Below are positions 1,609 through 13,673 of a DNA stretch of 15,337 bases, piece after piece (the first letter of the stretch is position 1; each line of letters begins with the position of its first letter). This DNA comes from a virus (lineage: Duplodnaviria; Heunggongvirae; Uroviricota; Caudoviricetes), in the IMG/VR virus record IMGVR_UViG_2648501149_000017. One strand, written 5' to 3'. A program made the translations under genes and the position numbers. Under the pieces are notes generated by a model that worked only from the letters and a program-made list of their open reading frames with translations, was not told the origin of the DNA and did not search any database.

Positions 1609-2799
1609 ATGATGCTGAATGCCCGCAAGGTTGAAGCTGCGAAAGGAAAAGAGAAGAGCTACAAGCTGTTTGATGGAGGTGGCCTATACCTTCAGGTCGA
1701 ACCTAATGGCTCGCGTTACTGGCGTATGAAATACCGTTTTGCTGGTAAAGAGAAACGATTGTCCTTTGGTGTTTATCCAACAGTCACACTTGCTGATGCC
1801 AGACAAAAACGAGAAGACGCGAAGAAACTACTCGCAGCAGGTGAAGATCCCGGCGAAGTCAAAAAAGCCAAAAAGCAGGCTTTAAATGCAGCGATTGAGA
1901 CACTTAACCCATTCAGAGAAGTGGCGTTAGAGTGGCACAAAATGAAATCACCCAAATGGTCTGAGGGCTATGCTTCCGACATCATTGAGGCATTCGAGAA
2001 AGACATTTTCCCGCATATTGGGCACAGACCTATAGCTGATATTCAGCCCCTTGAACTGCTTGAAGTTCTGAGGTTGATAGAAGCTCGAGGCGCTATGGAG
2101 AAAGCGAAGAAAGTCCGTCAGCGATGCGGTGAAGTTTTTCGCTATGCCATCGTAACGGGTAGGGCAATCTACAATCCGGCACCGGATCTTGCCAGTGCGA
2201 TGCAAGGACATGAAGCAGTCCACTATCCATTCCTCAAAGCCAACGAACTACCGGAGTTCTTTAATGCCCTTAATTCTTATTCAGGAAGTCCAATTGTATT
2301 GTTGGGGGCGCATTTACTTATCCTGACAGGTCTACGAACTGGAGAACTACGAGCAGGTGAGTGGCGAGAGGTGGATTTTGATAATGCGGTGTGGGAGATC
2401 CCAAAAGAACGTATGAAAATGCGTAGGAGCCATATTGTCCCGTTGTCAAAACAAGCATTATCCCATCTCAAAAGTTTGAAAGAACTAACTGGGAACTACC
2501 CGCTGATGTTCCCTGGACGCAACGATCCTAGCAAATTTATGAGTGAAGCAAGCATTAATCAGGTGTTTAAACGTATTGGATATGCAGGGCGTGTTACGGG
2601 GCATGGTTTCAGGCATACGATGAGTACAATCCTACATGAGAAAGGATTTAACAGCGCTTGGATTGAAACCCAGCTTGCTCATTCGGACAAAAACTCTATT
2701 CGTGGAATTTATAACCATGCCCAATATCTCGAAGGGAGAAGAGAAATGATGCAATGGTATGCTAATTATTTATCTGAGCTAATTGGTACTCATAAATGA
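1609..2799 (+). CDS. int: P4-type tyrosine integrase
   Basis: N-terminal arm-binding-type region (KEKSYKLFDGGGLYLQVEPNGSRYWRMKYRFAGKEKRLSFGVYP) and C-terminal catalytic region with HGFRHT and a YNHAQY tyrosine segment. The listed ORF starts at a TTG at 1540; first ATG is at 1609 (tandem ATG ATG), which I take as the start. Confidence 0.92.
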   Translation: MMLNARKVEAAKGKEKSYKLFDGGGLYLQVEPNGSRYWRMKYRFAGKEKRLSFGVYPTVTLADARQKREDAKKLLAAGEDPGEVKKAKKQALNAAIETLNPFREVALEWHKMKSPKWSEGYASDIIEAFEKDIFPHIGHRPIADIQPLELLEVLRLIEARGAMEKAKKVRQRCGEVFRYAIVTGRAIYNPAPDLASAMQGHEAVHYPFLKANELPEFFNALNSYSGSPIVLLGAHLLILTGLRTGELRAGEWREVDFDNAVWEIPKERMKMRRSHIVPLSKQALSHLKSLKELTGNYPLMFPGRNDPSKFMSEASINQVFKRIGYAGRVTGHGFRHTMSTILHEKGFNSAWIETQLAHSDKNSIRGIYNHAQYLEGRREMMQWYANYLSELIGTHK

Positions 2800-3620
2800 A
2801 TATTTTAAAAATTAATAATACTGATTCTCTGCTCAGAGATTACTACCAGTTGGATGAAGCTTCAGAAAAAATTGGTTGTAGTGAAAAGGATATACTCTGG
2901 TTTGCCAGAGAACGAGATGTAGAGCTATGCATGGAATTCCATGATGATGAGTATGATGTTTCATGTGGTTTGAAGATTGATGGTCAAATGGATGAGTTCT
3001 TATCTAATCTGAAATATTTACCACGAGATAGAAATGGCAATATTATGTTGTCAGACTTAAGTTCTATAAGAATCCCTGATGAAGATAATTTAATTGATAA
3101 AAATGGTTTTATTCGATGTTTCATATCCGGTTTATGGGCTGTTGATTATGAATATAAAGATCTGTTAGTTAAGCATGAGGGGCAACCGGATTCTTGGCCT
3201 ATTCATTTTCTACTGGCGGGTACGCCTAATATAAATTGTAAGGTAATTCTTTATGTAAATTATGATGAAAAAGAAAATTATTATCTTTTTGAGGTTTTGT
3301 GGATTACAAAGGTACAGATTCAAAAATTCATTGATATAGTCTTATGCGAACAAAAGCGGATAAAAAACGCCAATAAATATAAATCACAATCTGAGGCGCA
3401 AAAACAAAAACATGCTGTTCCTCGAGCTGAAATACTCATGGCTATTATTTCGCTCTATCATCGTGATATGAGGCTAAGAAGAGAGAGTCCAGCAGCGATA
3501 GCTGATTATCTTTTTCAACATGCCAGTGAGTTCTGGCCTAAGACCGGAGAACCGCCTTTGAGCTATGATACTGTTGTTAGTTTGCTACGTAGTTGCATGA
3601 AAAACATTAAGTTTAACTAA
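2796..3620 (+). CDS. hypothetical protein (AT-rich, unknown function)
   Basis: 274-aa ORF whose ATG overlaps the integrase stop (ATGA), suggesting translational coupling; base composition is visibly more AT-rich than neighbouring core genes. No family recognised. Confidence 0.6.
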   Translation: MNILKINNTDSLLRDYYQLDEASEKIGCSEKDILWFARERDVELCMEFHDDEYDVSCGLKIDGQMDEFLSNLKYLPRDRNGNIMLSDLSSIRIPDEDNLIDKNGFIRCFISGLWAVDYEYKDLLVKHEGQPDSWPIHFLLAGTPNINCKVILYVNYDEKENYYLFEVLWITKVQIQKFIDIVLCEQKRIKNANKYKSQSEAQKQKHAVPRAEILMAIISLYHRDMRLRRESPAAIADYLFQHASEFWPKTGEPPLSYDTVVSLLRSCMKNIKFN

Positions 3621-3745: not shown

Positions 3746-4036
3746 ATGTTATCTAAACATGATAATACTACTTTGCAACGACCTTCAATGGATTCTCTGA
3801 TCGATATGAAGTTTATTACTTCCGATTGTTTATTAAGTGATAAATGGATTTATCGATTGATTTCTCTGAATCGCTTTCCAAAACCTATAAAAATAGGTCG
3901 GATGTCACGATGGCGCGCTGCTGATTATTATAAGTGGCGAGATGGGTTTGAAGAAAACTCAGGTCAACATTTTGAGGGAATGAGAAATAAGGCAAGAGCA
4001 ATTAATAAAGGGAATAGATTATCACCTACTCCCTAA
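3746..4036 (+). CDS. alpA: AlpA-family (prophage CP4-57 regulatory protein-like) HTH transcriptional regulator / excision regulator
   Basis: Motif LLSDKWIYRLISLNRFPKPIKIGRMSRWRAADYYKW resembles the AlpA HTH signature (RFPKP.K.G ... W); RBS ACGGAG upstream. An internal ATG at 3788 is an alternative start. Confidence 0.78.
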   Translation: MLSKHDNTTLQRPSMDSLIDMKFITSDCLLSDKWIYRLISLNRFPKPIKIGRMSRWRAADYYKWRDGFEENSGQHFEGMRNKARAINKGNRLSPTP

Positions 4037-4068
4037 GCCTTAATTGATAGTTAGTAATATTTAACTGA

Positions 4069-4242
4069 TTAGCCTTTAGGGTCAATCCCGCGTGATTGGA
4101 GTTCTTTGCGTAAAATTCTTTTAATCCAAGTTGCCAACGCGCTATCTCCATCTTTGCGCATTTCGTTTTCGAGTTGCAACCTAAAATCGTCGGTAAGACG
4201 CATTTGGAATGGTGGAGAACGTTTCTCTTGTGGTGTTGACAT
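4069..4242 (-). CDS. Arc/MetJ-type ribbon-helix-helix DNA-binding protein (57 aa); not in the ORF track
   Basis: Minus-strand translation: MSTPQEKRSPPFQMRLTDDFRLQLENEMRKDGDSALATWIKRILRKELQSRGIDPKG; pattern of an N-terminal beta-strand (FQMRLTDDF) followed by two helices is Arc-like. Start codon overlaps a palindromic repeat. Confidence 0.65.
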   Translation of the reverse strand: MSTPQEKRSPPFQMRLTDDFRLQLENEMRKDGDSALATWIKRILRKELQSRGIDPKG

Positions 4243-4282
4243 GGTAATTACCCTAGAATATGATGACTACATGGTAATTACC
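4243..4282. promoter_or_regulatory. Two copies of the 10-bp perfect palindrome GGTAATTACC (4243-4252 and 4273-4282), each preceded by CAT; candidate operator
   Basis: Seen directly: CATGGTAATTACC occurs twice 30 bp apart, at the start codon and in the upstream region of the Arc-like gene, inside the divergent region shared with the icd-like operon. Confidence 0.5.
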
Positions 4283-4310
4283 ATTGTAAGTATAGTTCGC
4301 TTGTAAAAGC

Positions 4311-4345
4311 AATGCCCGATTGTGCGGGAACACAAATCGGGCATT
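4311..4345 (+). other. Perfect 11-bp inverted repeat (AATGCCCGATT / AATCGGGCATT) with 13-nt loop in the leader upstream of the icd-like gene
   Basis: Seen directly; lies 29 bp upstream of the ATG at 4374. No T-run follows, so not a classical intrinsic terminator; could be an operator or RNA structure. Confidence 0.45.
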
Positions 4346-4373
4346 TAACCAACCGTTATAAGAGGTAACGAAG

Positions 4374-4550
4374 ATGGCTAAACAGAAGTGTACCTGGTTA
4401 TTTGCGGCGATCAACCGCAGTCAACGCAATGCCTGTCCTGTGATGTTAAGGATCACCGCAGATAACGAGCGGTCAGCGCGGCGCAGACTTGCCCCGGACT
4501 ATGTACTGAGCTTTGCCGGGCGCATTCCCTGCGGAGGTGAACATGCGTAA
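4374..4550 (+). CDS. Icd-like host cell division inhibitor (58 aa); not in the ORF track
   Basis: Translation MAKQKCTWLFAAINRSQRNACPVMLRITADNERSARRRLAPDYVLSFAGRIPCGGEHA; the W.FAA ... RR.LAP ... LSFA.R.P pattern matches my recollection of P4 Kil/Icd-like proteins. RBS AGAGG upstream; stop overlaps the next ORF start. Confidence 0.65.
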   Translation: MAKQKCTWLFAAINRSQRNACPVMLRITADNERSARRRLAPDYVLSFAGRIPCGGEHA

Positions 4551-4902
4551 TTATCCGCACCCCGGCGAACGCTGGCAGCATGAACGTGGCTGGACGGTCA
4601 CGATTATCCGATTAATAGAAGCCTCGCCCTCTGTGGCGCTGGTTAATCCTGAATTCAGCTGTGAAGTGCTGATACGTCATGACAGCGACAACCAGCTTTC
4701 TTCCTGCCCTCTGGCATGGTTTGAACAGCGGTATACGCGCCTGTTTGATGTACCGCTCTTTAAGCCTGCACCAGCTCCTGCAGGCGGTAGTGGTTCCGGC
4801 CCGCTGACACTGCATCCGTCTGTGCTATTTATCCGCTGGCGGGAGCGTAGCATATGGCGTTCTGCTGAGCCTGACGACGGTCACTATTCAAAGTTTCTCT
4901 GA
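4543..4902 (+). CDS. hypothetical protein
   Basis: ORF with GGAGG RBS and ATG at 4543 (the listed ORF begins at an upstream TTG, 4513); contains a Pro/Gly/Ser-rich linker (KPAPAPAGGSGSGP). Family not recognised. Confidence 0.6.
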   Translation: MRNYPHPGERWQHERGWTVTIIRLIEASPSVALVNPEFSCEVLIRHDSDNQLSSCPLAWFEQRYTRLFDVPLFKPAPAPAGGSGSGPLTLHPSVLFIRWRERSIWRSAEPDDGHYSKFL

Positions 4903-4933
4903 CAAAATACCGCTGAAAACGGAGTAATCCACG

Positions 4934-5218
4934 ATGAATATTTCAAACGGGCACAACGGTGCTCAGGGCCACACTTTGCCTGAAAAACACAATACCGGTG
5001 CTTTTGCCTATGGGTTGTCAGAGGACAGTTTCGGAAAGCTGACCCGCGCAAGAAATGCCTGCGACATGCTCCAGCTTCTCTTTTCTGAATACCCGTCTCA
5101 GGCCGGAGCACTGGACGCTGGCTGTGCGCATGGTGTCGCCGCGCTGATGGAGTACCTGCTGGCAGATTTGACGGATATTGCACACAGTTGCGCACTGATT
5201 GAAGGAGGTGCCAGATGA
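4934..5218 (+). CDS. hypothetical protein
   Basis: 94-aa ORF with GGAG RBS; stop overlaps the next start (ATGA). No recognisable motif. Confidence 0.55.
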   Translation: MNISNGHNGAQGHTLPEKHNTGAFAYGLSEDSFGKLTRARNACDMLQLLFSEYPSQAGALDAGCAHGVAALMEYLLADLTDIAHSCALIEGGAR

Positions 5219-5598
5219 ACCAGCCGCAGGTTTCCATTTTCCCGGCAGAAATGACCACCGCGCTTTACCGGCGGGCTATTGCTTCAGCATGGCGGCAGAA
5301 AATGCTGAACGAAACTGGCAGTGATCAGTATGGTCCGCACAGCCTGACGGTGGAGCGTATTGAAATGGCCATTGCGCTGCATATCGAGTGCGTACTGATT
5401 AACGAGTACGGCGAAGTGCAGGGCGCCGCTACCGCGCTGGCACTGCTGACTGACATGCTGGAGCCGTCACTGCTGACCGCGCCGCCGGTACTGACCGCGC
5501 GCGGCTGTGAAGTGATGGCGGAGATGTACCGCACGCTTCCGGCGGCCTTTGATGACTTCTGCAGTACCGGTGTGACGTTGTATGAGGGGGAAGTATGA
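5215..5598 (+). CDS. hypothetical protein
   Basis: 127-aa ORF with AGGAGG RBS; translationally coupled on both sides (ATGA overlaps). Confidence 0.6.
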   Translation: MNQPQVSIFPAEMTTALYRRAIASAWRQKMLNETGSDQYGPHSLTVERIEMAIALHIECVLINEYGEVQGAATALALLTDMLEPSLLTAPPVLTARGCEVMAEMYRTLPAAFDDFCSTGVTLYEGEV

Positions 5599-8267
5599 CA
5601 ATACGGACGGTTACGCAGATTTCAGCCGCCGCACGGGGGAAATGGCCTGTTATTCTGCAGATGCTGCGTATTGATGTACCTGAAAACGGCAGGCACGGTC
5701 CCTGCCCGAAATGTGGGGGCAAGGATCGTTTTCGCCTTGATGACCTTGACGGGCGCGGGACGTGGATCTGCAGCCAGTGTGGCAATGGTGACGGTCTGGA
5801 TCTGGTTAAGCTCGTAACCGGTTACAGCGTCAGAAAGGCTGCGCAGGAGGTGGCGCAGGTGCTTAATGTGCCGGATGTGCAGGAACTGCCTGTTAAGCCT
5901 GCCAGACAAAAAGCCCCTAAACGAGACATGGGTCTTACCGTGGCGGCGCTGATGAAAGAGAGCCACACGGGAGAAAGTGCCTATCTGACAGGAAAAGGGT
6001 TCGCCGGATACCCGGCCTCTCTGACCGGAAGCGTGCAGCATATCAGCGGTAAGGATTTTCCTGCCGGTTCCCTGCTGTTACCACTCACGACCAACACCGG
6101 AGCCGTGACCGGTGCACAGCTTATCGCCCCGACGGGTGAAAAAAGCATACTGCCCGGCAGCACGATGAAAGGCGCGTTTGTGTCGCTCAGCCCGTTACCG
6201 TCTGAACCACCGGTACAGGTGGTGATTACCGAAGGTTACGCTACGGCGCTGACGGTAAGCCAGCTCACTGCCGGATGCGTAGTGGCTGCCATATCTGCGG
6301 GCAACCTGCCCAATGTGGCGCAGTCGCTGCGGGCACGCTGGCCTGAGGTAAAAATTATCATCGCCGGTGATAACGATTTTCAGGACGGGGGGGAGAATCC
6401 CGGCAGAGCCTTTGCTGAACGGGCGGCAAAAGCTGTTGGCGGCTGGATGACGCTGCCACCAGGAGAGATTAAGGCTGACTGGAATGACTTTCATCGGGAG
6501 CACGGTATTACCCGTGCCCGTGAAGCCTTTCGCAACGGTCTGGTACTGTGCGGGGAAGGCCGCACGCAACTGCCGCACGGGTTCCGTCTTACCCAGGAAT
6601 ATCTCTGGTATGAAAAGCAGGTACAGCGCAACGGTGAGACGGAGATCCAGAACGTCAAAATATGCAGCCCGCTGCGCGTGACGGCAATTACCTGCGATGC
6701 CGATGGCGGTAACTTCGGACGACTGCTGGAATGGGAAGATACGTGGGGTGAGTGTCGCCGCTGGGCGATGCCAATGGAAATGCTGAGCGGCAGTGGTGAG
6801 GAACTGCGCCGGGTACTGCTGGTTAACGGGCTGTCTTATATCAGCACCACCGGTGAGGCACGCGCACGCCTGATGGAATATATCTCACTGTGTAAACCGG
6901 AACGCCGCGTGACCTGCGTCAGTCGTACTGGCTGGCATGGTCAGGTTTACGTCCTGCAGGATGAGGTCAGCGGTGAAGGTGCAGAGGGTGTCATTCTCCA
7001 GACCACTTCCGTGCAGGGGCGTGATTTCCGCGTGTCGGGCACAACAGAGGAATGGCGGGAGCATGTATCCCGCTACTGTACCGGCAACTCCCGCGTGGCA
7101 TTTGCTGTCAGCCTGGCCTTTGCTGCACCACTGTTACGGCTGGTTGGTATGGACGGCGGCGGCTACCACCTCAAAGGGGAATCGACAGACGGTAAGACCA
7201 CCACCATGAAAGCGGCAACCTCCGTCTGCGGCGGGCCTGACTACTGGCAGACATGGCGGGCCACCGGCAACGCGCTGGAGGGATGCGCCAGCCGCCGTAA
7301 CGATGCCGCCATGATGCTTGATGAGATCCGGGAAGTTGACGGACGCGAGGCAGGCAATATCGCCTACATGCTGGCAAACGGTCAGGGCAAGGGCCGTGCC
7401 GGTACGGACGGTGAGCTGCGTACCCGTAAGCAGTGGCGCCTGTTGTTCTTTTCAACTGGCGAGTTGTCTCTGACCGAACATGCGGCAAAGGCCGGTGAGC
7501 GTACTTTTGCCGGGATGGAAGTCAGGATGATCCAGATCCCCAGCGATTCCGGGAAGTTTGGCGTTTTTGAGGAGCTGCACGGCTTCGACAGCGGCAAGGC
7601 TCTGGCAGAGCATCTTGAATGGGCCACGTCCTGCTACTACGGTTCGCCGTTCCGGGAGTGGCTGAAAGCACTGACCGCTGATCTTAACGGACTAACGGCA
7701 CAGGCAAAATCGCTGATGAAGGAATATGCTGCCGCCCTGACTCCGAAAGATGCAGGCAATCAGGTGGGCCGGGCTGTGAACCGCTTTGCACTGGTGGCGA
7801 TGGCAGGTGAACTGGCAACCCGTCTGGGTATCACCGGCTGGCCTGAGGGTGAAGCACTGCGGGCAACCCGCGTCTGCCTGAACGCATGGCTGAAAGATCG
7901 CGGGCACACCGCCAATCAGGAAGATATCGCCGCACTGGAGCAGGTTCGCAGTTTCTTTACCGCGAATCAGTACAGCCGCTTTGCAGACTGGTATGACGAG
8001 CGCAACCGCCCCGGCAATATGGTGGGCTGGCGCAGGGTGGAGAAAGGCAGTACCGCGCAGGGCACGGAAGCTGTCACTACGTTCTATGTCATGCCGTCCG
8101 GCTGGAAAGAAATCTGCAGGGGATTTGACCCGCGCAAGGTGGCGCGTCTGTGCGCAGATCGTGGATACCTGCTGCCCTCCACTGATGGCAAACTCCAGAC
8201 AACCATTCGCCCGCCAGAGATGAATCCCCGCAGGCTCTATGTCTTCAACAGCGAGGTGCCGGGTTAA
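5595..8267 (+). CDS. P4 alpha-type bifunctional DNA primase / P-loop NTPase (helicase-like)
   Basis: N-terminal zinc ribbon (CPKCGG ... CSQCG), TOPRIM motifs (ITEGYATAL ... IAGDND), then a P-loop domain with Walker A-like GESTDGKTT and Walker B-like MMLDE. Confidence 0.92.
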   Translation: MTIRTVTQISAAARGKWPVILQMLRIDVPENGRHGPCPKCGGKDRFRLDDLDGRGTWICSQCGNGDGLDLVKLVTGYSVRKAAQEVAQVLNVPDVQELPVKPARQKAPKRDMGLTVAALMKESHTGESAYLTGKGFAGYPASLTGSVQHISGKDFPAGSLLLPLTTNTGAVTGAQLIAPTGEKSILPGSTMKGAFVSLSPLPSEPPVQVVITEGYATALTVSQLTAGCVVAAISAGNLPNVAQSLRARWPEVKIIIAGDNDFQDGGENPGRAFAERAAKAVGGWMTLPPGEIKADWNDFHREHGITRAREAFRNGLVLCGEGRTQLPHGFRLTQEYLWYEKQVQRNGETEIQNVKICSPLRVTAITCDADGGNFGRLLEWEDTWGECRRWAMPMEMLSGSGEELRRVLLVNGLSYISTTGEARARLMEYISLCKPERRVTCVSRTGWHGQVYVLQDEVSGEGAEGVILQTTSVQGRDFRVSGTTEEWREHVSRYCTGNSRVAFAVSLAFAAPLLRLVGMDGGGYHLKGESTDGKTTTMKAATSVCGGPDYWQTWRATGNALEGCASRRNDAAMMLDEIREVDGREAGNIAYMLANGQGKGRAGTDGELRTRKQWRLLFFSTGELSLTEHAAKAGERTFAGMEVRMIQIPSDSGKFGVFEELHGFDSGKALAEHLEWATSCYYGSPFREWLKALTADLNGLTAQAKSLMKEYAAALTPKDAGNQVGRAVNRFALVAMAGELATRLGITGWPEGEALRATRVCLNAWLKDRGHTANQEDIAALEQVRSFFTANQYSRFADWYDERNRPGNMVGWRRVEKGSTAQGTEAVTTFYVMPSGWKEICRGFDPRKVARLCADRGYLLPSTDGKLQTTIRPPEMNPRRLYVFNSEVPG

Positions 8268-8293
8268 GGCTTTGCGTGAGTCTTATTTATTAA

Positions 8294-8488
8294 GGGTAAC
8301 AGGTGAAACAGGTGGAACAACCGTATTTTACAGGGCTGAATCTGTTCCACCTTCTGAAATAGTGAGGTGGAACAGATGTAACGCCAGCCAATCCGCTGTT
8401 CCACCTTGTTACCCGCGATGTTCCACCGGTGCAGTGTATATAAATGCTTTATAAAACAAATGGGTAACACATGTTTCACCTGTTACAC
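8294..8488. repeat. Iteron cluster (putative replication origin, P4 ori/crr-like)
   Basis: At least seven copies in both orientations of TGTTCCACC / TGTTTCACC (8302-8310, 8311-8319, 8343-8351, 8366-8374, 8397-8405, 8419-8427, 8472-8480) plus GGGTAACA / TGTTACCC variants (8294-8301, 8407-8414, 8462-8469, 8481-8488), immediately downstream of the primase gene. Confidence 0.7.
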
Positions 8489-8667: not shown

Positions 8668-9411
8668 ATGAACAACACCGCAGTGAATAACAACCTTTCC
8701 ACTTTTCCGGCTGTAACGCAGCGGGCACTGGAAACCATGAACACAGCCAGAAACGCATGGCTTGAAGCACGTCGTCAGCAGAAAGCGGCAGCGGATAATA
8801 TTGCGACAATCCGCCAGCGTCGCGCTGAAATGGAAGCCACGACGAACACACTGAATGAGGAGTGGCGCACGCTGTTTCGTGAAAGTCAGGGCGTGGTCTC
8901 AAAGGAAATGAAAAAACTGCGCACGGAAATTGCGCTGGGACGAGAAACTCTTGAGGATTTTGATGAGCTGCTGGAGGCTCAGGAAAGCGAAAATGCACTT
9001 TTGCCGCAGAAAGCTGCGGAATTAGCCGGAAAGTATATCCACGCGCATAACATCCTTGTGGATATTCGCGCAAAACAAATCTGGGAAGATTTTATGCAGT
9101 CGCATGGAAAAGCGCTTATTCAGACGCTGAGCCTGCTTAAATCCACAATGGGCCGGGAAGCCAGTGCCGTTGTGGGTGTGGTGAATTCAGTTAATGACCC
9201 GGACACAGTGCTGAAAGACTTTATTCATAAACATATCACCAGACCGGCTCTGGCTAACGATGCGATGCCTGAGCAGGACCCGGTGTTTAAACTGGCGGGA
9301 GTTGCCCCGGATTATGCGGCGCGTCTGGATTTCAGTAATCAACTCTCTCCGGCAGCTATGCATAAAATTAAGGTTCGTCAGGAACTTGCTGAGAAGGAGA
9401 AAGCAGTATGA
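8668..9411 (+). CDS. Sid-like capsid size determination (external scaffold) protein
   Basis: 247 aa, similar in length to P4 Sid; the segment EEWRTLFRESQGVVSKEMKKLRTEI matches my recollection of a conserved Sid region; sits directly upstream of psu-like and delta-like genes. AGGAGA RBS. Confidence 0.65.
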   Translation: MNNTAVNNNLSTFPAVTQRALETMNTARNAWLEARRQQKAAADNIATIRQRRAEMEATTNTLNEEWRTLFRESQGVVSKEMKKLRTEIALGRETLEDFDELLEAQESENALLPQKAAELAGKYIHAHNILVDIRAKQIWEDFMQSHGKALIQTLSLLKSTMGREASAVVGVVNSVNDPDTVLKDFIHKHITRPALANDAMPEQDPVFKLAGVAPDYAARLDFSNQLSPAAMHKIKVRQELAEKEKAV

Positions 9412-9959
9412 CGGCCCGAGGCACGCCTGACCAGGCACTTACCAGTTTTCGGAATGCCCGTATTCTGTGGGCCGGACATAATGAGAGCCGAAAAGCCGTT
9501 GAACAACAGATAACATCTCTCCTCGCTGCCACAGAAAAACCAGCAGATTATGCCCGACAGCTCGAATTACTGCGGGAACGTCTGGATGTGCTGAAATGGC
9601 AAATTAACTGTGCTGCGCGCGAATGCATTTACTCGCAGCATTTACTGATGGAGGCCTGCACAGAAGCCGCTCTCAGCAATTTTATGCAGGCGAATGGGGC
9701 AGCCCTGACATCTGCACTGGCTCCGTTCCTGAAGGGGCGCGGAGGGGTTGACGTTGCGTCCCGTATATTACGCAGTGCTCTGGTTCGCCAGCTGGCAATA
9801 ACACCGCCTGAAATTGCCGGGGATTATCGTGAGATCCTGGATGAATCCGGTTTGATGCCTGACCCCGGGATGATTCGTGATTGCCAGGGTTCTTACACCC
9901 CGGCACAACATCTGCGTTTTCAGCAACGCCTGAATGACATTAACGATATACAGGAGTGA
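9408..9959 (+). CDS. Psu-like polarity suppression protein
   Basis: 183 aa, close to P4 Psu in length; segments ALTSALAPFL and YTPAQ resemble recalled Psu motifs; translationally coupled to the sid-like gene (ATGA overlap). Confidence 0.6.
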   Translation: MTARGTPDQALTSFRNARILWAGHNESRKAVEQQITSLLAATEKPADYARQLELLRERLDVLKWQINCAARECIYSQHLLMEACTEAALSNFMQANGAALTSALAPFLKGRGGVDVASRILRSALVRQLAITPPEIAGDYREILDESGLMPDPGMIRDCQGSYTPAQHLRFQQRLNDINDIQE

Positions 9960-9964
9960 TATTA

Positions 9965-10237
9965 ATGGCACTTAAATGTCCGGAATGCGGTACAGTTGCA
10001 CACGCCAGAACAGCAGCCTATGAAGCTCCGTCAGTTAAACGCTCGTGGTATCAGTGCCAGAATCTGGAATGTTCCTGCACATTTACGGCACTGGAGAGTG
10101 TGGATAAGATAATCATGAAACCCCGGCGCAATGAACAGCTATCAGACAAAGCACAATCCCCGGAAAAACAACAGCAAACGCTCAATCGCTATGGCTCCGC
10201 GTCAAAACTGTCAAGCCGTCAGCAGATTCCTGTCTGA
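9965..10237 (+). CDS. Ogr/Delta-family zinc-finger late transcription activator
   Basis: MALKCPECGTVAHARTAAY ... WYQCQNLECSCTF matches the Ogr signature (C.C.HART ... Y.C.N..C). The listed ORF starts at a GTG at 9956; the ATG at 9965 with AGGAG RBS is the more likely start. Confidence 0.85.
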   Translation: MALKCPECGTVAHARTAAYEAPSVKRSWYQCQNLECSCTFTALESVDKIIMKPRRNEQLSDKAQSPEKQQQTLNRYGSASKLSSRQQIPV

Positions 10238-10257
10238 TTAGAAAAAAACGCCCACGT

Positions 10258-10285
10258 AATCCCGGTCGAGTACCGGGATTTTTAA
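10258..10285 (+). terminator. Rho-independent terminator downstream of the delta-like gene
   Basis: Perfect 9-bp stem AATCCCGGT / ACCGGGATT with 5-nt loop followed by a T-run. Confidence 0.6.
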
Positions 10286-10312
10286 CACCTTTTCCCTGGC
10301 TGGCCTGAGAGC

Positions 10313-10420
10313 GCATGAGTGCATGTCTATGGCGCATGAAAATGCATGAGCCTTATGCACCTTTTTTGAGGCGAAAACCTTTGTGTGGTGGTATCTGAGA
10401 CGATTTATGGCATGCATGAA
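10313..10420. repeat. Cluster of GCATGA(A/G) motifs
   Basis: GCATGA at 10313-10318, 10334-10339, 10343-10348 and 10415-10420, with GCATG variants at 10321-10325 and 10411-10415, in the non-coding stretch between the late genes and the cargo cassette. Confidence 0.4.
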
Positions 10421-10766
10421 AACCAGTCTGTTAAGCGAAGCGGGCAGGCGTGCGGGGCTGCCCGCGATAGCACTGAAATCAACAGGTAAAACTATTTTTT
10501 ATTAGTAGTGTAAACTGGGAGCGAACGGACTCTGTCATGCTGTATCATCCTGTAATGATCAATCTCACTGGTGTCTGTATAGATGTCAACCAGTTTCGAC
10601 GGCTGTGTCTAACTTAAAATTAGAGCTTAATCAAGTTTTTCCTCGAGAATACTTTTAAAAGACAATGAGTTATGAGAAAGTGGAGGCTGTCACGTTGGTC
10701 ATATGTAACACTCCACGTAATCTTAATCGCTTTGTAAATGTTGAAGTTAATTAATAGGGAAAACTG

Positions 10767-11726
10767 ATGCTAACCAGGGCTGAAAATATAAGAAAAATCA
10801 CAAGCTATTTAGCTATTCTCTCAAGAGAGGTTGAGATTAGTGCCTCCCTCAATCTTTTGGATATCAACGTTCAAGCGGAATCTTTTTATAGAGATTTCTT
10901 AAACTTATGTTATGGATATAATTTAAGAAATACCAATAGTGAAGAGCAAAACTACCAAGCAATAGATCTTGCTGATGAAGATCGGAAGATTGCTATACAA
11001 GTAACTTCAACTTCTGACTTGGGAAAAATTAAGAATACAGTTGATGGATTTATAAAAAGTAAGCAATATGAAAAATATGATAGACTAATTGTACTGAATA
11101 TAACTGAAAAGAAAAAGCACAGATTGAAAGAGTATGGAATAGCCGGGTGCTATGTAATTAATATCAAAGATGATGTATGGGATTATAAGGATATAATTAG
11201 AAAGATAAACGATTTGAATGATTGTGATATATCAACAATATGCTCATTTTTGGAACGTAATATTAATACTAAAGCTGCTGATAAACCGCCGAAAGAAGTC
11301 ACAACTATGTTTGCGATGATTGAATTATTGAGTGATGATGCTCACCCATTGGCAGGAAATGGATTTATTGAAGAGCCTAATCCTGAAAATAAAATATATA
11401 AAAGATTTTCAGATTATTCAGAGCGGTTGATTGGCTTATATACTGGGTTAGCTCCATTATATAGTGGGATATTTAAGTCAATAAAAGAACAGAGCGATAT
11501 TGGTATCGTAAGGTACCAAAAGATGAGTTTGTATTTAGAGTCATTTAGTGATAAGGTCTTAAGAAGCCATGGTGGAGATCCTATCTTGGCGCTTAATTAT
11601 TTAAAAGAATATTTTTCTAAACAACTGAGCCAGAGAAATGTAGATTACGATGAAACAGCTATCAAATTTTTCTTAATTGAGAATTTAATTGCATGTAACG
11701 TCTTTCCTAATTCGGAGATTCTTTGA
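10767..11726 (+). CDS. cargo protein with SMEK-like N-terminal domain (putative effector of a three-component ABC-ATPase system)
   Basis: 319 aa, AT-rich; the N-terminal segment LNLLDINVQAESFYRDFLNLCYGYNLRNTN ... QAIDLADEDRKIAIQVTSTS resembles what I recall as the SMEK domain found in conflict systems. AGGGA RBS. Assignment is from memory, not a search. Confidence 0.55.
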   Translation: MLTRAENIRKITSYLAILSREVEISASLNLLDINVQAESFYRDFLNLCYGYNLRNTNSEEQNYQAIDLADEDRKIAIQVTSTSDLGKIKNTVDGFIKSKQYEKYDRLIVLNITEKKKHRLKEYGIAGCYVINIKDDVWDYKDIIRKINDLNDCDISTICSFLERNINTKAADKPPKEVTTMFAMIELLSDDAHPLAGNGFIEEPNPENKIYKRFSDYSERLIGLYTGLAPLYSGIFKSIKEQSDIGIVRYQKMSLYLESFSDKVLRSHGGDPILALNYLKEYFSKQLSQRNVDYDETAIKFFLIENLIACNVFPNSEIL

Positions 11727-11974
11727 TGTTAAGTTTTTTTTCGAAAGATGAGGATTTGACAAAATCCCCTCCTGTTGTAGGGGCTAAAATTCTTAATTTA
11801 TTTGACGAAACAAAAAAAGAAAAAATTAGTATTTTCGATTTAGCAAAAGAATTAAAGAAAAACAACTCTCTAGGAGTGCGTGCAATTTATTTTGGAATGG
11901 TCTTTCTTTATACTCTTGATCTTATCGATTTCGATGAGCCATATGTGATAAATAAAAATGTTAAGAATAAATAA
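11726..11974 (+). CDS. small middle-component protein (about 82 aa) of the three-gene cassette
   Basis: ATG at 11726 overlaps the upstream stop (TGATG); the listed ORF begins at a TTG at 11723. Its 3' end overlaps the ATPase gene by 17 nt. Size and position between effector and ATPase fit an ABC-three-component middle component or a Lamassu LmuC-like protein. Confidence 0.55.
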   Translation: MLSFFSKDEDLTKSPPVVGAKILNLFDETKKEKISIFDLAKELKKNNSLGVRAIYFGMVFLYTLDLIDFDEPYVINKNVKNK

Positions 11975-13673
11975 ACTATATAGCATACCAGAATCTTTTG
12001 AGCCAGTAAGCTTTGATAGTGGCATCAATATCATCTTAGGTGAAAAAGATGTTTCATCTAACAAAACTAATGGAGTGGGTAAAACTCTTTTAATAGAGTT
12101 TATTAATTTTTGTTTATTAAAAGAATTTAAGTCGAGTAGAGTTTCTAAAATTCCTCATTCTGATTTTTCGAAAGACATTTTGATATGCCTTGATTTTAAT
12201 ATTGATAATATTAACATTATATCCCAGCGTTCTATTGGGAAACATAATGAGCCAACACTTGTAATAAATGGAAAAACAATAGAGTTTAGTGGATTAGATG
12301 ATGCGTTATCTCATTTAAGCAATCTTATCTTTAAGAATAGTAAGGGTATACTTCATCCATCATTTAGAGCGATGCTGGGGCCTCTGATACGCGATGAACG
12401 ATCTGAATTTAAATCTATTGTTGAGTGCTTCGACACAAAATTACATATACCTGCTGACTATACTCCTCATCTTTATTTGTTAGGTATTGATATTGCTCCC
12501 TATAAAGAGGCAAAGATTTTACAACGAGAAATAGATGATTTATCAACTACAAAAAATAAAATAAAGAGAGATATTGAATTTCTGACGGGAAAAAAAATTA
12601 GTTCTGCAAAGGCAGAGGTTAATGATCTTAAATCAAAAGTTGAACATATCAGAAACGCTATGGATGCATTTGATAGCGATAGCAGTTATGAACTTATCAA
12701 AGATGAAGTAGAAGAATTAGAAAGTTCTTTAGAAGAGTTGCGGAATAAAAGAACAATACTTAAGTTAGAGCTTTCAAGAATAAATGCTCTCGTTGGTGAA
12801 GTATACATAAATGATGATGAAGTGGTTGAAATTTATAATAAATTTAAAGTTGGATTAGGTGATGCTATCAAAAAAGAACTTAATGATGTTATTTCATTTA
12901 AGAAAAAAATAGATCACTTCCAAAACACTTTGTTAAATACGCGAAAAGAAACATTACTTTCTGAATTGCGTAAGATATCAGATAAGCTATATACAGTAAA
13001 TAGACTTTATAAAGAAAAAGCTAGTGTTTTTGAGCAGGCGGGGGGGTTTAAAAGCCTGAAAATTTTAATAATGACTTATCAGAAAAAGTTAGAGGAGTAT
13101 TCACAGTTATCTTCATTGCTTAAAAAATTTGAAGATTTCGATTCTAAATGGAAAGTTAAGAAGTCAGAACGCTCTTCTATGATAATTTCGTTAGATCTTT
13201 CTATTATGGATAACGAAAAAACGATTGAATCTTTTGAGGAAACCATTTTATCAATCCATGAATATGTTTTTGGAAATAGAAAGTGTTCTTTCGAAATTAA
13301 GGCGACAGAGAAGAAAGAAACTATCTCAATGGATTTAAGAATTGATGATGACGGTAGTCATAGTAATGAGCGAGAAAAGGTTTTCTTTTATGATTTGGCT
13401 CTTTTACTTACAGAAGAAACGTTTCGACGTCACCCTGGATTATTAATTCATGATAATATTTTTGATGTGGATCAAGATACATTAATTAAAAGCTTGAATT
13501 ATTTGGCAGAGAAATCCAGTTGCTTAAATGATGCACAATATATTTTGACGTTAAATAGCGACAAAATTAGTGAAATTGATAAAAGAGATTTGAAACTAGA
13601 TATTAACTTCTATAAGCGAGCTTCGTTAACTAAAATAAATAGATTCCTGGGAAGGCATTATCAAGAAATATAA
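11958..13673 (+). CDS. ABC/SMC-like ATPase (Lamassu LmuB-like / ABC-three-component ATPase)
   Basis: 571 aa; N-terminal head with P-loop (INIILGEKDVSSNKTNGVGKTLLIEF), long charged probable coiled-coil middle (many E/K heptad-like stretches), C-terminal Walker B / D-loop-like LLIHDNIFDVDQD. Confidence 0.65.
   Translation: MLRINKLYSIPESFEPVSFDSGINIILGEKDVSSNKTNGVGKTLLIEFINFCLLKEFKSSRVSKIPHSDFSKDILICLDFNIDNINIISQRSIGKHNEPTLVINGKTIEFSGLDDALSHLSNLIFKNSKGILHPSFRAMLGPLIRDERSEFKSIVECFDTKLHIPADYTPHLYLLGIDIAPYKEAKILQREIDDLSTTKNKIKRDIEFLTGKKISSAKAEVNDLKSKVEHIRNAMDAFDSDSSYELIKDEVEELESSLEELRNKRTILKLELSRINALVGEVYINDDEVVEIYNKFKVGLGDAIKKELNDVISFKKKIDHFQNTLLNTRKETLLSELRKISDKLYTVNRLYKEKASVFEQAGGFKSLKILIMTYQKKLEEYSQLSSLLKKFEDFDSKWKVKKSERSSMIISLDLSIMDNEKTIESFEETILSIHEYVFGNRKCSFEIKATEKKETISMDLRIDDDGSHSNEREKVFFYDLALLLTEETFRRHPGLLIHDNIFDVDQDTLIKSLNYLAEKSSCLNDAQYILTLNSDKISEIDKRDLKLDINFYKRASLTKINRFLGRHYQEI

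Follow-up and report, generated by a model that had tools for sequence, protein, structure and literature searches.

Bacteriophage P4 is the classic example of a satellite with RNA-based immunity, which it exerts through its CI RNA. In the immI region of P1/P7 (c4 RNA-icd-ant), which we take to be the source of the founding Icd protein, translation of icd is presumably the control point, with the downstream gene coupled to it. The c4 RNA of P1/P7 is reportedly a sense-strand, processed, trans-acting RNA (work of Riedel, Heinrich, Schuster and co-workers, 1990s). Here we analyse a P4-like satellite prophage on a segment of the Escherichia coli chromosome (IMG/VR record IMGVR_UViG_2648501149_000017; 15,337 nt, hereafter the window), in which a 58-aa icd/kil-like gene, referred to below as icd, is preceded by a perfect inverted repeat. 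With a probability of roughly two in three, we read this repeat as the stem-loop at the 3' end of a cis-encoded antisense RNA, ~75 nt long and of SymR-like architecture, that would silence icd.

In P4, CI RNA blocks translation of the kil/eta region, with premature termination as the consequence (PMC10111431, PMC4825925). P4 and the window are alike in having a member of the Icd/Kil family as the first translated gene of the early operon, and in P4 an RNA acts on the leader of this kil-type gene, keeping the replication operon off in the prophage, as is predicted here. However, the CI RNA (RF01695, clan CL00128) is a processed sense-strand RNA with partly complementary pairing sites (PMC10111431, PMC4825925), whereas the window has a predicted, fully complementary countertranscript plus a putative divergent protein repressor. 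P1/P7 likewise differ from the window, which has no C4 match.

SymR of E. coli K-12 (RF01809) is transcribed from a promoter embedded in the open reading frame (ORF) of its target, symE, and represses its translation, as was shown experimentally (Kawano et al. 2007, PMC1891008). Loss of SymR raises the mRNA ~3-fold and the protein more than 7-fold (PMC1891008). Type I toxin-antitoxin systems (hok/sok and others) resemble the window in architecture only, in that translation of a small toxic protein is blocked by a cis-encoded antisense RNA. Unlike the toxins of these systems, Icd-like proteins are not membrane peptides; the gene lies in a repressor-controlled operon, and there is no indication here of a role in post-segregational killing. 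Our literature search, which was thin on subscription journals, found no paper in which a SymR-like or cis-antisense RNA is connected with Icd/Kil genes or with P4-like satellites, and a prior description is possible.

Inverted repeat and predicted antisense RNA

The arms of the repeat, AATGCCCGATT (4311-4321) and AATCGGGCATT (4335-4345), are 100% complementary and 13 nt apart, exactly as the first-pass annotation had described them (a perfect 11-bp inverted repeat). One bulged base allows three further pairs (GTG/CAC). In dinucleotide shuffles of the window the expected number of perfect repeats of this kind (11 bp or longer, loop of 3-20 nt) is 0.06, and only 15 of 300 shuffles contained any.

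On the minus strand the repeat is the second of two stem-loops (Table 1), and the fold of the minus-strand RNA has an energy of -28.5 kcal/mol (z = -5.05). The predicted RNA would start (+1) at 4379, 3 nt inside icd, and its 5' AGCCAU complements AUGGCU, the start and second codons of the gene. The 7-nt loop of stem-loop 1 contains an anti-Shine-Dalgarno sequence, CCUC, which faces the Shine-Dalgarno sequence of icd, GAGG, at 4362-4365. Its pairs 9-14/22-27 are retained with compensatory changes among relatives, those in Pasteurella included (UCUUA-UCCUUAG-UAAGA). In stem-loop 2, 10 of 15 pairs are altered on both sides among related loci. Read on the minus strand, this stem of 14-15 pairs is followed by GC and UUUU, and the 3' end of the RNA is tentatively placed at ~4304 by analogy with the annotated end of SymR.

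SymR was the sole Rfam match near the site (RF01809, minus strand, 4308-4379), with 31.6 bits and an E-value of 5e-4 in 701 nt or 8e-5 in 106 nt. In the reverse direction, a covariance model built from satellite RNAs only, R1, which scores 88.4 bits on the window by construction (the window is in its training set), had the annotated K-12 symR as its best non-self match, aligned end to end over all 77 positions (23.8 bits, E = 7.8e-5). The matches in the two directions are each sub-threshold, and the predicted RNA appears to have no matching Rfam family.

The likeness to SymR extends to the arrangement of parts. Both have a 5' helix, an anti-Shine-Dalgarno loop in the first hairpin and a long second, 3' hairpin with a near-identical apex (GUGUUGGCGCAC in SymR and GUGUUCCCGCAC here). 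Both have a promoter embedded in the ORF (here a predicted one) with the -10 box 7 nt from +1, and a 5' end that falls 3 nt beyond the start codon, reading AGUCAU in SymR and AGCCAU in the predicted RNA; the linkers read UGAUUAG and UGGUUAA, respectively. The target is different: the gene opposite is Icd/Kil-like and not symE, whose product has the AbrB fold. Moreover, symE is under LexA, whereas the sense promoter here is probably under a satellite repressor, and the target here heads a multigene replication operon. No LexA-box-like site is visible on reading 4236-4310, where the repeated palindrome is ATGGTAATTACC, although no dedicated LexA-box search was made.

The antisense promoter, as read from the sequence, has a 16-nt spacer and 7 nt between the -10 box and +1 (A4379). 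We examined the region upstream of AGCCAU in 32 loci, which include symR and unrelated ORFs. A TAnnnT hexamer was present in 22 of them, at -13/-8 in 17 and at -12/-7 in five, and at any other offset within 60 nt in only 0-4 of the 32. The box stands in four distinct Icd N-terminal coding contexts, as TACACT, TAAACT, TATGCT and TATAAT, and symR has TAGAAT in the same register. This fixed register is, in our view, the strongest single argument that antisense transcription may start at AGCCAU.

More distant loci carry the same elements. R1 matched opposite Icd-like genes (44-48% identical) in the Pasteurella multocida satellites Pmp7 (40.8 bits) and Pmp8 (29.6 bits), where both hairpins are of different sequence, the second has a U-G wobble, and a perfect TATAAT -10 box stands 7 nt ahead of AGCCAU. 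Further matches (43-85 bits) lay opposite another Icd subfamily (MAELQHTQ...) and in an island of a different type, and one of 47.5 bits, in a P4-like contig, lay opposite an eta-like long ORF upstream of isrK/C4.

Covariation, strand and competing explanations

Leaders were gathered from eight genomes of other species, 22 IMG/VR contigs and four further E. coli variants, giving 19 distinct versions of the RNA region. Protein homologue searches gave only 23 close relatives and a scan of genome contigs eight near-identical Icd loci; sequence diversity was taken from leader variation, pattern scans of IMG/VR and the Pasteurella satellites. Across the 19 variants icd is nearly invariant, and at least five unrelated classes of the upstream repressor/operator region can be told apart. 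From class to class the hairpin changes in sequence with its pairing kept, for instance GCCCGAUU/AAUCGGGC versus GCCUCUAGG/CCUAGAGGC. Evolution of the locus appears to be modular, with a conserved module reaching from the hairpin into icd and an upstream repressor/operator region swapped between elements.

In a MAFFT alignment of the 19 variants, 88% of cells pair, compared with 32-42% when partners are slid, and changes on both sides are found in 31 cells against 12.6 in shuffles, a count reached in none of 500. When 20 diverse members were aligned to the model instead, 94.7% of cells paired and 14 pairs had changes on both sides; on none of the five measures did any of 500 shuffles attain the observed value.

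This pattern bears on the earlier suggestion that the repeat is an operator. A perfect palindrome-like repeat between the promoter and the first gene might be bound as DNA by the repressor, the AlpA-like protein or Delta. However, the sequence of the repeat is unconserved and its pairing is kept through many compensatory changes (e.g. GCCCGATT/AATCGGGC versus GCCTCTAGG/CCTAGAGGC), and a strand-specific wobble bias, as described below, would be meaningless for duplex DNA. Better candidates lie upstream, at 4239-4282, where two copies of ACATGGTAATTACC within operator-like palindromes overlap the promoter. We reject the operator, which we regard as very improbable, because the pairing covaries.

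The covariation is also strand-specific. Cells holding G-U, which pair in minus-strand RNA only, outnumber A-C cells by 92 to 23 in the MAFFT alignment, 16 of the 23 coming from one doubtful terminal pair, and by 90 to 4 in the model-fitted alignment. The mismatches of the plus-strand hairpin read in leader variants are A-C or C-A, that is, G-U wobbles on the minus strand, and in all 19 variants the minus strand gives the more stable fold. We assign the structure to minus-strand RNA because this asymmetry is not expected of a DNA operator or a sense-only element. The first-pass proposal of a regulatory RNA structure is thus upheld as to an RNA structure that is not due to chance, but the structure is selected on the opposite strand, a reading that had not been considered there.

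The same asymmetry is a difficulty for a hairpin working in the sense mRNA only, as a 5'-leader stem-loop that affects stability, RNase III cutting or icd translation, with no functional antisense RNA. The plus-strand leader does form the hairpin as well (-31.5 kcal/mol over 4296-4400, z = -3.49). A sense -10 box lies directly 5' of the hairpin in the wider phage family, where the hairpin would be the 5'-terminal stem-loop of the mRNA, and the Rfam R1162-like model, in sense orientation, gives sub-threshold matches to some relatives. Nevertheless, with 90-92 G-U against 4-23 A-C cells, lower stability as the plus strand in 19 of 19 variants, and both the fixed-register antisense -10 box and the minus-strand U-runs left unexplained, we consider a sense-only role improbable. 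A plus-strand terminator, another function proposed at first, is contradicted by the lack of a U-run 3' of the repeat on that strand in 25 distinct leader variants. No member examined has a plus-strand U-run, and the terminator scan did not call the plus-strand hairpin.

On the minus strand, by contrast, about 15 of 20 members have a U-run no more than 8 nt from the stem, as read from the alignment rows, mostly of 3-7 Us within 8 nt. The Pasteurella satellites Pmp7 and Pmp8 have five or six Us within the match, extending to a run of seven in Pmp8. Alternatively, the minus-strand transcript may be real and not serve pairing, the hairpin being an insulating terminator for the divergent repressor promoter, or a leaky one with read-through into the repressor gene. 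The latter would resemble PRE of lambda, which runs antisense to cro into cI. The hairpin does lie directly upstream of the probable promoter of the repressor gene (TATACT 4294-4289; gene start 4242), several relatives have no U-run after the hairpin, permitting read-through, and the class of hairpin co-varies with that of repressor and operator. However, the RNA module is also found opposite genes without a divergent repressor (symE, HNH, GIY-YIG), its most conserved parts are the anti-Shine-Dalgarno loop and the AGCCAU 5' end, consistent with pairing, and most members have a U-run. We consider this explanation unlikely overall; it is possible mainly for relatives lacking the U-run, and could coexist with control by pairing.

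The position of the repeat was initially likened to that of the P4 immunity RNA. The position is indeed equivalent to the P4 leader, and P4 Kil belongs to the same protein family, but the window has no P4-type immunity RNA. P4 carries isrK/seqA, c4-a1b1 and the C4/CI RNA between PLE and kil, all three detected by Rfam. In the window, C4/CI, isrK and c4-a1b1 gave no Rfam match at gathering thresholds, nor at E <=10 around the site. The same search was positive for C4 in P4 (74.9 bits) and in the P4-like contig L055 (76.4 bits), with isrK and c4-a1b1 also detected in both. Furthermore, the leader is only ~100 nt long. A remnant or variant of P4/P1 C4-type immunity (a CI/C4 RNA or a seqA/seqC target, in sense orientation) is accordingly hard to credit, and a C4/CI immunity element in the icd leader was rejected in view of no C4, isrK, seqA or c4-a1b1 match.

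L055 (IMGVR_UViG_2778261085_000011) has two SymR-like modules at 9391-10547. One faces a truncated Icd-like ORF beside a ribbon-helix-helix gene; the other faces the beginning of a long eta-like ORF, within which lie isrK, c4-a1b1 and C4 and which has an Icd/Kil domain at its end. The predicted countertranscript and a C4 system can therefore co-occur.

If the repeat is part of a cis-antisense RNA, as we favour, the RNA would be transcribed on the minus strand from a sigma-70 promoter in icd codons 5-14, starting at 4379; it would span the start codon, Shine-Dalgarno sequence and the greater part of the 5' leader, and end just past the repeat at GCUUUU. It would be made constitutively in the prophage state and pair with leaky icd mRNA, probably beginning as a kissing contact between the anti-Shine-Dalgarno loop and the Shine-Dalgarno loop of the mRNA. 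These two 7-nt loops are fully complementary and could nucleate pairing, which would block icd translation. Because icd comes first in the operon, coupled to the second gene by an 8-nt stop/start overlap, the block should lower expression of the replication genes, up to the primase, via polarity or cleavage of the duplex. Once the Arc-like repressor is lifted, sense transcripts would outnumber the antisense RNA and may interfere with its promoter; as a speculation, induction could shut down the antisense promoter through convergent transcription arriving from the early promoter 108 bp away. The logic would be that of P4, where CI blocks kil/eta translation, with a countertranscript plus an Arc-like repressor as the tool.

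Several points weigh against this reading. The existence of the RNA, its two ends and its effect are all predicted from sequence. The SymR score of 31.6 bits is far under the Rfam gathering score of 61, and the E-values obtained with R1 are rough. Neither the simple promoter scan nor the consensus terminator scan made a call, for the antisense promoter and the hairpin respectively; the U-run is only 4 nt in the window and is absent in L012, L015 and L030 (GCACUCA) and in L029 (GCAACUA). The 20-member alignment was fitted to the model, which somewhat inflates its pairing, unlike the MAFFT alignment, and in both the relatives are phylogenetically linked, so that cell counts overstate independent events. 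Third-position diversity along icd is lowest in the first 45 nt, but this is uninformative with the whole ORF nearly invariant, and low diversity there is also expected for any translation-initiation region.

Icd-like gene, early control region and satellite context

The Icd-like gene itself is known, already annotated and ordinary. Its likeness to Icd/Kil, surmised from the sequence by the first-pass annotation, was borne out by the profile search: the ORF scores 80.9 bits (E = 5.2e-23) against NCBIfam NF033153 (phage_ICD_like), well over the cutoff of 25, with residues 6-52 aligned to profile positions 1-47 of 48. It is also 52% identical to P4 Kil, which is the C-terminal part of the obsolete P4 'cI' ORF. 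The gene had been called unlisted, but RefSeq/PGAP already names it 'host cell division inhibitor Icd-like protein' (WP_001118612.1), a protein annotated in 333 of 5426 complete E. coli genomes, in P4-like satellites at tRNA-Thr. At residue 21 the window has Cys (TGT, 4434-4436), where all 27 other distinct copies listed have Arg (CGT/CGC); this private substitution falls outside the antisense promoter. PHROGs (phrog_1743) and phage records, including those of Pasteurella Pmp7 and Pmp8, give the Icd/Kil family the label 'transcriptional repressor'. The label is misleading, and its source is probably the obsolete P4 'cI' annotation (NC_001609 8168-8584).

The gene does head the operon leading to the primase, but the translational coupling claimed for this operon is only partial. 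The next gene begins with an ATG at 4543 that overlaps the icd stop codon (ATGCGTAA), the 3' end of icd contains a GGAGGTG site, and 4-nt overlaps follow at 5215 and 5595; there is one 31-nt gap, at 4903-4933.

The predicted early promoter would yield a leader of ~100 nt that contains the inverted repeat. The two ACATGGTAATTACC repeats overlap the -35 box and +1 of this promoter as well as the start codon of the divergent gene, and are probably the operators of the repressor that it encodes. This 57-aa product, whose counterparts in relatives are annotated as YlcI/YnfO family, is probably an Arc/ribbon-helix-helix-type repressor of the early promoter, a function suggested by its sequence. Relatives with other repressor genes (Arc-like or YlcI/YnfO) have entirely different repeats in the region corresponding to 4236-4296. 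A second plus-strand -10-like hexamer, TATAGT (4291-4296), lies just 5' of the hairpin and overlaps the minus-strand TATACT (4294-4289), which could serve the repressor gene. The stretch 4074-4285, with the divergent repressor gene, has 70% DNA identity to positions 4964-5179 of Pasteurella phage Pmp8 (OR544139), a Pasteurella multocida satellite, and is the sole part of the query 4000-4950 that matched any record in the phage collection.

Table 1. Features of the satellite and of the icd region (window coordinates)
Feature	Position	Strand	Basis or remark
Integrase	1540-2799		Gene order of satellite
ORF, 274 aa	Between integrase and AlpA/Vis-like gene		No Pfam match
AlpA/Vis-like helix-turn-helix gene	3746-4036		
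Divergent 57-aa gene	4069-4242	-	Weak PHROG match to Arc-like repressor
Predicted early promoter of icd-primase operon	4236-4264	+	TTGACA, 17-nt spacer, TATGAT; 11/12 consensus positions, promoter scan
Two copies of ACATGGTAATTACC, 30 bp apart	4239-4252, 4269-4282		Each within ATGGTAATTACC palindrome
Predicted cis-antisense RNA, SymR-like, ~75 nt	4379 to ~4304	-	SymR RF01809 match, covariance model R1
Stem-loop 2 (inverted repeat)	4311-4345	-	3' stem-loop, then GCUUUUAC at 4310-4303
Stem-loop 1	4353-4371	-	UCGUUA-CCUCUUA-UAACGG; minimum free energy fold
icd/kil-like gene, 58 aa	4374-4550	+	NF033153 profile, identity to P4 Kil, RefSeq annotation
Predicted sigma-70 antisense promoter	4387-4414	-	icd codons 5-14; -35 TTGATC 4414-4409, -10 TACACT 4392-4387
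119-aa gene	4543-4902	+	phrog_30862, function unassigned in PHROG; ATG overlaps icd stop by 8 nt
Three small genes, including DUF5375	Between Icd-like gene and primase (the 119-aa gene first)		
Zn-ribbon/Toprim/DUF927 primase	5595-8267		
Two Psu-fold genes (Sid and Psu positions), Ogr/Delta gene	3' of primase		
Cargo between Delta and right island end	10767-13673		SMEK_N (319 aa), small ORF, DUF2326/AAA_23 (571 aa)

The window is a chromosomal segment carrying proA and tRNA-Thr (1369-1441), followed by the satellite prophage, and a locus 99.9% identical to it carries RefSeq annotation. The island is identified as P4-like by tRNA-Thr, the integrase, two Psu copies, Ogr_Delta, a Toprim/DUF927 primase, DUF5375 and AlpA; a direct repeat search found no attL/attR repeats of at least 15 nt. 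In E. coli strain VG12A2 (NZ_CP128592; L001 10259-10956, otherwise 99.9% identical), an IS1A is annotated between the integrase and the AlpA-like gene; the counterpart of this stretch in the window, 2796-3620, is the intact 274-aa ORF. Just 3' of the primase, 8290-8480 holds a cluster of GGTGGAACA/TGTTCCACC and GGTGAAACAGG-type repeats, with inverted repeats of 11-13 bp at 8340-8406. The cluster resembles the octamer iterons of P4 ori/crr and is probably the replication origin of the satellite. The cargo lies at what we take to be the known anti-phage hotspot of P4, and its SMEK_N and DUF2326/AAA_23 genes are, by this analogy, a candidate defence system.

Predicted AGCCAU countertranscripts in other mobile elements

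Similar modules were sought in IMG/VR at large. A first pattern (CGTTNNCTC...TGGT) gave mostly chance matches, which were filtered with the model. The second combined the 5' end and the linker (AGCCAT, 18-26 nt, TTGGTYAGA) and was followed by R1; it gave 27 further matches of 25-57 bits in phage contigs of 41-65% G+C, each beginning opposite an AUGGCU start codon. Among the genes that they face are those for HNH_3/AP2 and GIY-YIG endonucleases, an ArdC-N-like protein, a helicase, a Cpn10-like protein and small Cys-rich proteins. When 26 of the matches were folded on both strands, 25 folded better as antisense, a figure subject to selection bias, as both the pattern and the model favour the antisense strand. 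In these wider relatives the tail after the second hairpin, (U)UCGCUAUUUUA, complements a sense-strand -10 box; as this box lies directly 5' of the hairpin, the sense mRNA would begin at the hairpin base. Contigs L162-L237 (e.g. L192:6022-6097, L208:8172-8249 and L211:4551-4624) show AGCCAU, an anti-Shine-Dalgarno hairpin, UUGGUYAGA, a second hairpin and UUCGCUAUUUUA in succession, an architecture that is possibly a mobile promoter/leader/antisense cassette.

Two further Rfam families are alike in being ~75-nt countertranscripts that cover an initiation region, PtaRNA1 (RF01811) and the R1162/RSF1010 RNA (RF00043). Their consensus sequences have an anti-AUGGC 5' end, an anti-Shine-Dalgarno hairpin, a linker and a second hairpin. 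Both gave sub-threshold matches to contig L218 (RF00043, 35.3 bits; RF01811, 19.3 bits), and neither matched the window at E <=10. However, RF00043 is modelled in the sense orientation. Its consensus on L218:484-557 ends ...UAACCA...AAAgGAG...AUGGCUac, which looks like a sense leader joined to the start codon of repA and unlike the countertranscript; the family may be stored in sense orientation, or else both strands give a score. R1 gave only 8.3 bits on an RSF1010-type repA leader, which is not significant, and no R1162/RSF1010 membership is claimed. A superfamily with PtaRNA1 and the R1162 RNA is a hypothesis only, to be taken as a lead and not as a result.

On a broader and rather tentative view, to which we give less than even odds, the predicted RNA may belong to a large family of ~75-nt AGCCAU countertranscripts, of which our literature search gave no description and in which SymR would be the one studied chromosomal member and PtaRNA1 and the IncQ RNA perhaps relatives. 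The unit might be a portable cassette (a sense -10 box, a 5' hairpin, a Shine-Dalgarno hairpin, AUGGCU and an embedded antisense promoter) placed before Icd/Kil genes in P4-like satellites and in islands resembling phage-inducible chromosomal islands of Enterobacteriaceae and Pasteurellaceae, and before HNH and GIY-YIG homing-endonuclease genes, among others, in many phages. In satellites it would replace C4/CI or, in some elements, add to it. On the same tentative footing, the variable second hairpin, which seems to track the type of repressor and operator, may be the specificity determinant between co-resident elements.

The branch of P4-like satellites represented by the window is without CI RNA and appears to use a protein repressor together with a fully complementary countertranscript at the Icd/Kil initiation region. 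If true, this would be a second, independent RNA solution to the control of the same point as in P4, and SymR, until now an isolated chromosomal curiosity, would gain a large set of relatives in mobile elements. Annotation pipelines miss the predicted ~75-nt RNA, a gene for which could be added opposite hundreds of Icd-like genes.

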